Assembly: GCF_988243305.1 (NCBI RefSeq)
Contig: NZ_OZ547136.1
DNA: 64,000 nt
Reading direction: 5' to 3' (one strand)
Below are positions 37,636-40,794 of the stretch, piece after piece; the stretch's first letter is position 1; each line of letters opens with the position of its first letter. The notes beneath the pieces are model-generated. The model was not told the DNA's origin. It saw only the letters and a program-made list of their open reading frames with translations, and ran no database searches. The position numbers and the translations under genes were made by a program.

Positions 37636-38763
<1,128 letters not shown>

Positions 38764-39093
38764 TTATGTTGGCGTTTTCTATTCAGTATAGAAGTGGGAG
38801 CGACTGGGCGAGATGCGGAAGTTCTGGAATGTTTTTTTTTGATGATGGTGACTGAAGCAAATTGGCTACATTTTGCAATATGACAAGTTATGGCAGTGCG
38901 GACTGGTGGCGAAGAATTTTGACGATTGAGGCATGCAGAAAAAACGGGTTCAGCTTCAGTTGATCAAATGAGGATTGAGAAGTCCGAAACAGGACTTACT
39001 GTATAAATAAACAGCTATTTTGCTAAGGAAGGGTAAGATAACGGCGGGTGCCTGAAGCTTTCCGGTTTCAGGTTTACTCTGAGGTCTGGAAAG

Positions 39094-39282
39094 ATGAAGC
39101 CCCAGGACGATATTTCTATCAACCCTGGGGCTGCCACTCCAAACCCAAACAATTTGGATGGTAGTCCCTTCTTCGCATGGAGGCAATATAAACATGCTGA
39201 CGAAATATGCCCTTGCGGCAGTCATAGTGCTGTGTTTGACGGTGCTGGGATTTACGCTTCTGGTCGGAGACTCGCTGTGTGA
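39094..39282 (+). CDS. Mok-like overlapping reading frame, 62 aa, copy 1
   Basis: ORF starts 100 nt upstream of hok and overlaps it out of frame, as in hok/sok systems. Confidence 0.5.
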
Positions 39283-39346
39283 GTTTACGGTGAAGGAACG
39301 TAATATTGAGTTTAAGGCTGTTCTCGCTTACGAACCGAAGAAGTAG
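39194..39346 (+). CDS. hokE: Hok-family membrane toxin, 50 aa, copy 1
   Basis: [50 protein letters not shown] is a typical Hok sequence; GGAGG RBS 11 nt upstream. Confidence 0.85.
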
Positions 39347-39597
39347 CCGTTGTGCGGGGAGTAATCCCCGCATATCCGGTTGTCAGGTCAGGGTGGTAAG
39401 GCACCTGCTTTACACTTTCGCCCGCGGTCAGCAATGGCTGCGGGCGATGTCGTTTTAAGGGCAATGATCAGTTTTGCCAACAGAAGTCCGAAACAGGATT
39501 CACTGTATAAATAAACAGCTATTTTGCTGAGGAAGGGTAAGATAACGGCGGGTGCCTGAAGCTTTCCGGTTTCAGGTTAACTCTGAGGTCTGGAAAG

Positions 39598-39786
39598 ATG
39601 AAGCCCCAGGACGATATTTCTATCAACCCTGGGGCTACCTACCCAAACCTGAACAATTTGGATGGTAGTCCCTTCTTCGCATGGAGGCAATATAAACATG
39701 CTGACGAAATATGCCCTTGTGGCAGTCATAGTGCTGTGTTTAACGGTGCTGGGATTTACGCTTCTGGTCGGAGACTCGCTGTGTGA
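39598..39786 (+). CDS. Mok-like overlapping reading frame, 62 aa, copy 2
   Basis: Paralog of copy-1 mok with a few substitutions (AATPNPN to ATYPNLN, D49N). Confidence 0.5.
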
Positions 39787-39850
39787 GTTTACGGTGAAGG
39801 AACGTAATATTGAGTTTAAGGCTGTTCTCGCTTACGAACCGAAGAAGTAG
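39698..39850 (+). CDS. hokE: Hok-family membrane toxin, 50 aa, copy 2
   Basis: Same as copy 1 with one substitution (A8V); intact ORF and RBS. Confidence 0.85.
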
Positions 39851-39999
39851 CCGTTGTGCGGGGAGTAATCCCTTAAGTTAGCGCTTATGGGAGTAATCCC
39901 CGCATATCCGGTTGTCAGGTCAGGGTGGTAAGGCACCTGCTTTACACTTTCGCCCGCAGTCAGCATTGGCTGCGGGCGAATCGCTCCGGGTATTGTCAA

Positions 40000-40620
40000 T
40001 TAATCGTGTTGGCACAGCGTTATGACTATCTTTTCTTTTATCTGCCAGTGCACAGCAAACTGCTCATCCTCTAGTCGAATGATGATCTGCTGTTTATTCA
40101 AGCTAATTATCTGATAATCCAGAAATCCTGCATCAGTTTGTCTCTCCGATGCCTTAAATGCGCTCTCTTTGGCGGAAAATGCCAGTGTTAGCGCCAGAGA
40201 AAAGGTTAAACCGCATTCTGCGAGTCGCTCGTGTTCTGCTGGTGTAATAATGTTGTCTGTCAATTCTCTTGCGGTTTGTACAGAGAAAATCTCTTCGATA
40301 TCAATGCCAATCGGTTGACGAGATACCACGGCTAATGCCGTAGTCCCGCAGTGGCTAATACTGCCGTATACCTCCGCAGGCCACACAGGTTGGCGTAGCT
40401 CGCCGATAGCGGGCACATATTTATAGCCATATTCCCGCAAGGCATAAACAGCAGCGATTCGTCCAGCTAAATGCTCTGTTTTACGTTTACGTCCAGCGTG
40501 TTGCAGTTGTGCGTAGTGTGGCAGCCAGAGTAAATCCTGCTCGCGAAAACTCGCCGGATCGAACTTAACAAAATGCAGCGTATTTCCGGCAAAGGGGAGG
40601 GCGGTATGCGTAGTTTTCAT
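40000..40620 (-). CDS. entD: 4'-phosphopantetheinyl transferase for enterobactin synthesis, 206 aa
   Basis: PPTase-like sequence; start re-picked at MKTTHTALPFAG (an ATG 9 nt upstream, MVDMKTT, is an alternative). Confidence 0.8.
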   Translation of the reverse strand: MKTTHTALPFAGNTLHFVKFDPASFREQDLLWLPHYAQLQHAGRKRKTEHLAGRIAAVYALREYGYKYVPAIGELRQPVWPAEVYGSISHCGTTALAVVSRQPIGIDIEEIFSVQTARELTDNIITPAEHERLAECGLTFSLALTLAFSAKESAFKASERQTDAGFLDYQIISLNKQQIIIRLEDEQFAVHWQIKEKIVITLCQHD

Positions 40621-40657: not shown

Positions 40658-40755
40658 GCCTGATGCGCTACGCTTATCAGGCCTACGTGGTCCTGCAATA
40701 TATTGAATTGGCAAGATTTTTGTAGGCCGGATAAGGCGTTCACGCCGCATCCGGC
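40658..40755. repeat. REP/BIME palindromic units between entD and fepA
   Basis: gcctgatgcgctacgcttatcaggcctac and gtaggccggataaggcgttcacgccgcatccggc match the REP consensus. Confidence 0.7.
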
Positions 40756-40794
40756 ATGAACTACGCGCACTTTGTCAACAATCTGACGTTAGCA

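Follow-up and report, generated by a model that had tools for sequence, protein, structure and literature searches.

The 64-kb stretch of DNA that we analysed (hereafter the window) carries two hok/mok units in head-to-tail order. Their best explanation, to which we assign a probability of roughly 90%, is a two-copy allele of the chromosomal hokE/mokE/sokE type I toxin-antitoxin (TA) locus of Escherichia, a locus that is copy-number-polymorphic between ybdK and entD. As an arrangement, the hokE pair is already known: the locus is a known one, and this copy-number allele of it is common.

Two hokE units lie in tandem between ybdK and entD

Unit 1 (38978-39447, plus strand, 470 bp) and unit 2 (39482-39979, plus strand, 498 bp including a 28-bp insertion) were delimited by direct repeats and pairwise alignment. 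The alignment also defines the 34-bp spacer between them (39448-39481, plus strand), which forms the diagnostic tandem junction. The flanking genes, ybdK (37636-38754) and entD (from 40000), are both on the minus strand and were assigned from open reading frames (ORFs) and the annotation of a 99.9%-identical genome. Two direct repeats relate the units to each other: 38978-39277 and 39482-39781 are 96% identical at a spacing of 504 nt, and 39357-39447 and 39889-39979 are 98% identical at a spacing of 532 nt. The spacing shifts from 504 to 532 nt because the 28-bp insertion, which pairwise alignment places just 3' of the hok stop codon, sits in copy 2. Altogether, 14 substitutions and this 28-bp indel separate the two units. 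Repeats, ORFs and alignment bear out the original prediction of a head-to-tail hok/mok pair between ybdK and entD, which is structurally intact; the predicted 470-bp unit and 504-bp period apply to unit 1 and to the 5' repeat, with 498 bp for unit 2 and 532 nt for the 3' spacing.

Hok and mok reading frames

Each unit encodes a 50-amino-acid Hok peptide on the plus strand, hok 1 at 39194-39346 and hok 2 at 39698-39850, both taken from the ORF list. The Pfam family PF01848 (Hok/Gef) matches Hok residues 5-46 over the entire model (E = 9e-8), and the NCBIfam Hok models match at 1e-10 to 4e-13, under their curated cut-offs. As had been predicted, A8V is the sole difference between Hok 1 and Hok 2, and both copies keep their ribosome-binding site and start codon, the region from the Shine-Dalgarno sequence through the ATG, GGAGGCAATATAAACATG, being the same in the two units. 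Hok 1, with A8, is identical to K-12 HokE (WP_000956455.1). Hok 2, with V8, is identical to WP_000956465.1, the HokE variant met most often in the sampled units. Both proteins, WP_000956455.1 and WP_000956465.1, occur under the PGAP name HokE in Z1323HEC0462, the genome with 99.9% identity. K-12 HokE, and with it the Hok 1 sequence, is toxic on expression, and hokE mRNA undergoes A-to-I recoding at residue 46 (bioRxiv 10.1101/2025.08.07.668861); the Tyr46 codon of hok 1 stands in the context TACG (39329-39332, plus strand).

In both units a mok-like frame of 62 codons begins about 100 nt upstream of the hok ORF (39094-39282 in unit 1 and 39598-39786 in unit 2, plus strand). Both frames overlap hok by 86 nt, that of unit 1 in the +1 frame. 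A search of NCBIfam returned no family match for mok.

Both units carry a LexA box

One CTGT-N8-ACAG site in each unit reads as a LexA (SOS) box, TACTGTATAAATAAACAGCT in unit 1 (38997-39016, plus strand) and CACTGTATAAATAAACAGCT in unit 2 (39501-39520, plus strand). The pattern ACTGTAT-N6-ACAG occurs at exactly two sites in the window, one per unit, where 0.02 would be expected by chance, and all 26 units sampled from 13 genomes share the same core of the box. Scanning with the full 20-nt LexA consensus at up to 3 mismatches gave no match, because both boxes carry 4 mismatches. With a LexA box and the ybdK and entD flanks present, both units are members of the hokE subgroup.

This agrees with the listing of hokE among LexA-box genes (PMC2826370) and with a heterology index of 4.9 for its box (PMC11228462). 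Ciprofloxacin up-regulates one annotated hokE gene in EHEC EDL933 (PMC11125564), and O157:H7 genomes of the collection that we searched carry tandem hokE. AZT did not induce hokE of K-12 in one study (0.47-fold; PMC11228462).

Predicted hok mRNAs and their 3' ends

The Rfam family RF01794 matches both leaders over its full length (model positions 1-157), scoring 82.4 and 84.1 bits where the gathering threshold is 59. Position 1 of the model aligns at 39046, from which we predict a full-length hok mRNA 1 at 39046-39458; the match at 39550-39706 (84.1 bits) likewise predicts hok mRNA 2 at 39550-39985, both on the plus strand and with putative ends. A candidate -10 element of hok mRNA 1, TAAGAT, lies at 39034-39039 on the same strand. 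The hok and Sok promoters were placed only by position and R1 homology, because a generic sigma-70 promoter scan of 38750-40050 called no promoter.

In the predicted fold of mRNA 1, the 5' GGUGCCU (39047-39053) is paired with AGGCACC at 39399-39405 (z = -6.7), and in that of mRNA 2 the same 5' heptamer (39551-39557) is paired with AGGCACC at 39931-39937 (z = -8.0). The z-scores compare the predicted mRNA folds with those of shuffled sequences, and the closure is present in the minimum free energy and centroid structures of both mRNAs. Closure of the 5' end onto the 3' end in the tac/fbi manner is a defining trait of hok mRNAs, and the predicted 5'-3' pairing of both transcripts is a closure of this type. 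At the 3' end of unit 1 we found a terminator hairpin with a T-rich tail (39418-39457, plus strand), the sole terminator-like site called in 38750-40050. The 3' hairpin of unit 2 (39950-39979, plus strand) is without a T-run downstream, and the terminator scan of the same interval called none for copy 2.

Sok-like antisense units

Minus-strand sequence and fold point to a Sok-like antisense unit at 39089-39186 in unit 1, with a counterpart at 39593-39690 in unit 2 that has the same promoter hexamers; both are on the minus strand and their transcripts are putative. The promoter-like elements of Sok 1 are a -35 hexamer TTGCCT (39186-39181) and a -10 hexamer TACCAT (39163-39158), separated by a 17-nt spacer. 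The predicted Sok 1 RNA of about 63 nt would run from about 39151 to 39089 and consist of a 5' tail and a hairpin; its fold (-25.9 kcal/mol for unit 1) leaves the 5' tail single-stranded and forms a GC-rich hairpin. Sok 2 is predicted from about 39655 to 39593, with a 5' tail that differs from that of Sok 1 at 6 positions. Since the Sok-like promoter matches the consensus at 8 of 12 positions, which is below the scan threshold, and went uncalled in the generic scan, we can only infer Sok transcription. The candidate Sok-like RNAs face the start of mok, in the arrangement typical of Sok. Among strains, the Sok-target hairpin shows compensatory changes, CCAAA...TTTGG being replaced by CCGAG...CTCGG, and these support the hairpin.

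A proposed mechanism by analogy with R1 hok/sok

If the units work as hok/sok of plasmid R1 does, a weak promoter overlapped by the LexA box would, in each unit, drive a hok mRNA about 410-435 nt long. This mRNA would be held closed and untranslatable while its 5' end is paired with the 3' box, and slow 3' trimming would lead to refolding, upon which mok would be translated, with hok translation coupled to that of mok. By the same analogy, a short Sok RNA transcribed antisense in cis inside the mok region may pair with the mok initiation region, so that the mRNA would be blocked or destroyed. Hok would act as a 50-amino-acid inner-membrane peptide, and DNA damage would, through the SOS response and LexA cleavage, presumably raise hok mRNA from both units. 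With this scheme we infer the transcripts, their ends and their processing, control of each copy by LexA, a toxic V8 allele, an effect of dosage and a physiological role.

Maintenance and evolution of the array

Copy number at the locus ranges from 1 to at least 3, the mok frame occurs in three states across strains (overlapping, in frame with hok, or a short upstream ORF), and alleles are mosaically shuffled among copy positions in different strains. Such an array probably arises and changes through unequal recombination and gene conversion between units. The freely varying copy number and the unstable mok frame would also suit a pair of inert relics, unexpressed or never activated, that are kept by recombination and drift and whose copy number has no phenotype. 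The failure of AZT to induce K-12 hokE (PMC11228462) speaks for such relics, as does the record of the chromosomal hok loci tested so far, which show no post-segregational killing; hokA, hokB and hokC are without it and without activation by rifampicin, so far as the citation of Pedersen & Gerdes 1999 in bioRxiv 10.1101/2025.08.07.668861 conveys.

We nevertheless consider it improbable that both units are inert. The hok ORF is intact in 34 of 34 sampled units (26 in the 13 E. coli genomes, 8 in the scan of species representatives). Their 13 synonymous and 10 nonsynonymous variants give a pN/pS of about 0.26, which is consistent with purifying selection on the Hok peptide. The LexA-box core, the -10, the region from Shine-Dalgarno sequence to ATG and the 5'-3' helix are invariant or conserved among the sampled units, and the compensatory changes in the Sok-target hairpin likewise argue against decay. 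Moreover, ciprofloxacin induces hokE in EHEC (PMC11125564), a tandem carrier, and expression of HokE is toxic to cells (bioRxiv 10.1101/2025.08.07.668861). A two-copy allele of the hokE/mokE/sokE type I TA locus remains the reading that we prefer.

Variation is concentrated in the Sok tail and its target

Differences between the two units are unevenly spread: 6 of the 14 substitutions fall within 15 nt (39133-39147), a degree of clustering matched by 19 of 100,000 permutations. The 5' tail of Sok is encoded here, as are the loop and 5' arm of the hairpin that it targets. No part of the unit is more diverse among 26 E. coli units than this tail/target segment (pi = 0.167; mean, 0.035). At least four tail alleles are found, at differing copy positions among strains, and recombinant tails also occur. 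Tail-target duplexes have predicted energies of about -40 kcal/mol when cognate and of -22 to -23.5 kcal/mol when crossed.

The packing of substitutions, the peak in diversity and the stronger cognate duplexes would all be expected if the units were diverged, partly orthogonal modules in which each Sok prefers its own hok mRNA by way of its diverged 5' tail. We think this unlikely. The remainder of Sok, about 42 nt, is identical between the units, and full cross duplexes are still predicted at about -113 kcal/mol; in some strains the same tail allele sits at different positions or the tails are recombinant, and the tail segment may vary just because constraint is lowest in this part of the leader. 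That the two Sok RNAs are partly orthogonal is thus possible, if unproven, with the odds against it. We regard as similarly doubtful the broader proposal that a hypervariable segment of 20-25 nt (39133-39157 in unit 1) is under diversifying selection, that the Soks of co-resident units are partly orthogonal and that recombination shuffles a few tail alleles among copy positions. If it were true, hokE arrays would be a natural system of 'addressable' antisense pairs, with the variable state of the mok frame as a second tunable layer.

Copy 2 retains a scar of IS186

The 28-bp insertion in copy 2 belongs to an IS186 scar (39862-39899, plus strand), recognised by its identity to the right IS186 junction of K-12 at the same site. 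The scar reads GGAGTAATCC (39862-39871), then CTTAAGTTAGCGCTTATG (39872-39889), then GGAGTAATCC again (39890-39899). The middle part, CTTAAGTTAGCGCTTATG, is 18 nt of the IS186 terminal inverted repeat and identical at 18 of 18 positions to the right end of K-12 IS186; the 10-nt GGAGTAATCC repeats around it are those that border IS186 in K-12. There, the element lies in the GGGGAGTAATCCCC hairpin 3' of the hokE stop codon, with the GGAGTAATCC duplication on both sides. The K-12 hokE allele assayed with AZT is this one, interrupted by IS186. Because the target duplication encloses the last 18 nt of the terminal repeat, we identify the insertion as the remnant of a lost IS186. A random 28-bp indel was also considered and was rejected, as the sequence equals the K-12 IS186 junction. 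The end-points of the deletion share CCC, which suggests that IS186 was lost by microhomology-mediated, near-precise excision; copy 2 would formerly have carried IS186 in its post-stop hairpin, and the deletion would have left the 28-bp scar.

In the predicted mRNA 2, the scar lengthens only the post-stop hairpin and the 5'-3' closure is retained; on this model it is unlikely to disable unit 2. The scar is found in its full 61-nt context in 3 of 5,426 complete E. coli genomes, and 2012C-4221, like the window, has it in the copy nearest to entD. The original prediction had correctly stated that K-12 has a single hokE followed by IS186 (the annotated IS4-family element is IS186). Its description of a clean pair with no IS element was right in that a full IS186 is missing from the window and wrong in that copy 2 bears an IS186 scar at the K-12 site.

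The tandem allele is common

A locus-wide megablast could not tell single from tandem alleles, as single-copy loci, through joined pieces, also reach 96% coverage of the query, and the frequencies given here therefore rest on junction-specific queries. The junction between copy 1 and copy 2 was represented by 61 nt (39436-39496) and counted when matched nearly full length; by this measure, 44% of complete E. coli genomes have it (2,398 of 5,426). The matches total 2,470 places across the 5,426 genomes, more than the number of genomes that carry them, so some genomes must hold at least three copies; direct inspection showed arrays of three in APEC E12049 and 2012C-4221. The K-12 state of a single hokE with IS186, counted by the left hokE-IS186 junction, is another common allele (1,951 of 5,426 genomes, 36%), and single-copy loci without IS186 also occur. 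What is rare is the combination of alleles in the window (A8 in copy 1 and the tail alleles) together with the IS186 scar: only 4 records are at least 99% identical across the locus.

Outside these genomes, each species was scanned through a single representative genome: Escherichia whittamii, the cryptic-clade genome MOD1-EC7003 and another E. coli-like representative carry the tandem at this locus, and E. albertii and Escherichia sp. E1V33 carry single copies. The pair is also already annotated, RefSeq/PGAP listing 'hokE (x2)' under the match in many genomes, O157:H7 included. In the literature, tandem duplication is described as frequent among type I TA loci (Fozo et al. 2010, PMC2887945); 10% of Hok homologs and 13.5% of Escherichia chromosomal hok genes belong to islets, in which 2-6 duplicated copies are spaced by less than 2 kb (bioRxiv 10.1101/2025.08.07.668861). 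The original prediction had implied that the tandem state is novel, and had proposed BLASTN as a check on its frequency, naming a common, already described arrangement as what would speak against it. With 44% of genomes carrying the pair, its annotation in RefSeq and islets in the literature, the arrangement is common and the implied novelty falls away.

The false expansion of one hokE unit into two during assembly, an alternative that had been named at the outset, has practically no probability and is effectively refuted: the idea draws only on the proneness of repeats of about 500 bp to mis-assembly, with no supporting evidence found, whereas the copies are separated by 14 substitutions and a 28-bp indel, the same junction recurs in the 2,398 independent complete genomes and in other species, and a 99.9%-identical locus is present in an independent complete genome.

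Significance and comparison with known systems

As a discovery the tandem hokE pair matters little, being a frequent and annotated allele of a long-known locus, and the rare IS186 scar and the variation concentrated in the Sok tail are minor additions. The allele frequencies do mean that K-12, whose only copy is interrupted by IS186, does not typify the species at hokE. Work in K-12 on SOS-induced toxins and persistence may miss effects of the intact one- to three-copy hokE arrays of wild strains. The variation in the Sok tail and target, together with the polymorphic mok frame, offers small leads on antisense specificity in type I TA systems.

Lineage-specific tandem duplication within one intergenic region, with copies left intact, is shared with ldr/rdl, ibs/sib and zor/orz (PMC2887945), which differ from the present locus in belonging to toxin and RNA families other than hok. 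With hok/sok (parB) of plasmid R1 the window has in common the PF01848 peptide, an overlapping mok, a putative cis-antisense Sok facing the mok initiation region, the tac/fbi closure and the 3' hairpin, features that on the window's side are partly predicted; the locus differs from the R1 system in its chromosomal location, its LexA box and its tandem duplication. IS186 inserts at G/C-rich palindromic targets, and scars of near-precise IS excision are known; the site in the window is the GGGGAGTAATCCCC hairpin that holds a full IS186 in K-12, here with a remnant only. Also comparable are the islets described by Escalera-Maurer et al. (bioRxiv 10.1101/2025.08.07.668861), which likewise hold duplicated hok copies, and the tandem hokE pairs in RefSeq, for example in O157:H7, which share both the two-unit arrangement and the locus. 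The hokE/sokE locus of K-12 (Pedersen & Gerdes 1999, Mol Microbiol 32:1090) occupies the same position between ybdK and entD and encodes the Hok 1 peptide, and its LexA box, leader, 3' elements and IS186 target site match those of the window. It differs in having one unit with a full IS186, where the window has two units and a scar only in unit 2, and in a 1-nt deletion that sets the mok ATG in frame with hok, where both units of the window keep the overlapping 62-codon frame.

An IS186 scar in the second hok unit

The second of the two tandem hokE units (39482-39979) carries an IS186 scar at window positions 39862-39899, consisting of an 18-nt terminal repeat and a 10-nt target duplication. 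Its position is the exact site at which K-12 carries a full IS186. The scar is rare, occurring in 3 of the 5,426 complete E. coli genomes, and a full IS186 junction at hokE is present in about 36% of the same set.

The 3' ends of the two units also differ. The unit 1 hairpin (39418-39457) is followed by a T-run; the unit 2 hairpin (39950-39979, within 39950-39999) has none, and the stop codon of the convergent entD gene adjoins it (position 40000). It is possible that the hok 2 transcript reads through against entD.

Copy number and surroundings of hokE

We searched the complete genomes with a 61-nt query across the boundary between the two copies (39436-39496), which matched at up to three places per genome. 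Three tandem hokE units occupy the ybdK-entD interval in APEC E12049 (locus L007, 2846-4156) and 2012C-4221 (locus L012, 192-1501). In FDAARGOS_536 (locus L009, 3767-6179), the tandem pair has a divergent inter-unit spacer, and genes for an SDR oxidoreductase and an ABC transporter take the place of entD after it; the downstream context of hokE in this strain is therefore a different one.

Further elements were noted elsewhere in the window. In the entD-fepA intergenic region, an Rfam match to the sRNA ES036 (CssrF) was observed on the minus strand (40679-40761; 42.2 bits, above the gathering threshold), adjoined by a REP-like element that resembles naRNA4 with a score below gathering. The tRNA-Arg(TCT) gene argU (17534-17610) is only about 21.5 kb from hokE. 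Since fimZ and envY directly flank argU in the 99.9%-related genome Z1323HEC0462, the DLP12 prophage, which adjoins argU in K-12, appears to be absent there, and from the window too if the two are collinear.

Reading frames of the hok and mok region

On the minus strand, opposite the hok leader and mok, RefSeq annotates an 89-aa ORF as a "hypothetical protein" (38956-39225 and 39577-39729). This ORF is flagged as a pseudogene, frameshifted or with an internal stop, in many genomes. It overlaps the region of the predicted antisense RNA Sok and probably reflects an annotation artefact.

The TACG context at Tyr46 is kept in both hok copies (39329-39332 and 39833-39836); recoding of this codon in the hokE mRNA to Cys through TadA A-to-I editing has been described (bioRxiv 10.1101/2025.08.07.668861).

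Over 39094-39160 and 39598-39664, the mok frame varies between strains when the window is compared with the hokE loci of other E. coli genomes (L001-L012); the variation stems from 1-nt indels near positions 39108 and 39146. Three states occur: a 62-codon frame overlapping hok, found in both window units; a short ORF of 17-22 codons that stops before hok, found in O157:H7 copy 1 and others; and, in K-12 and O157:H7 copy 2, a mok in frame with hok that yields an 83-codon Mok-Hok fusion frame.
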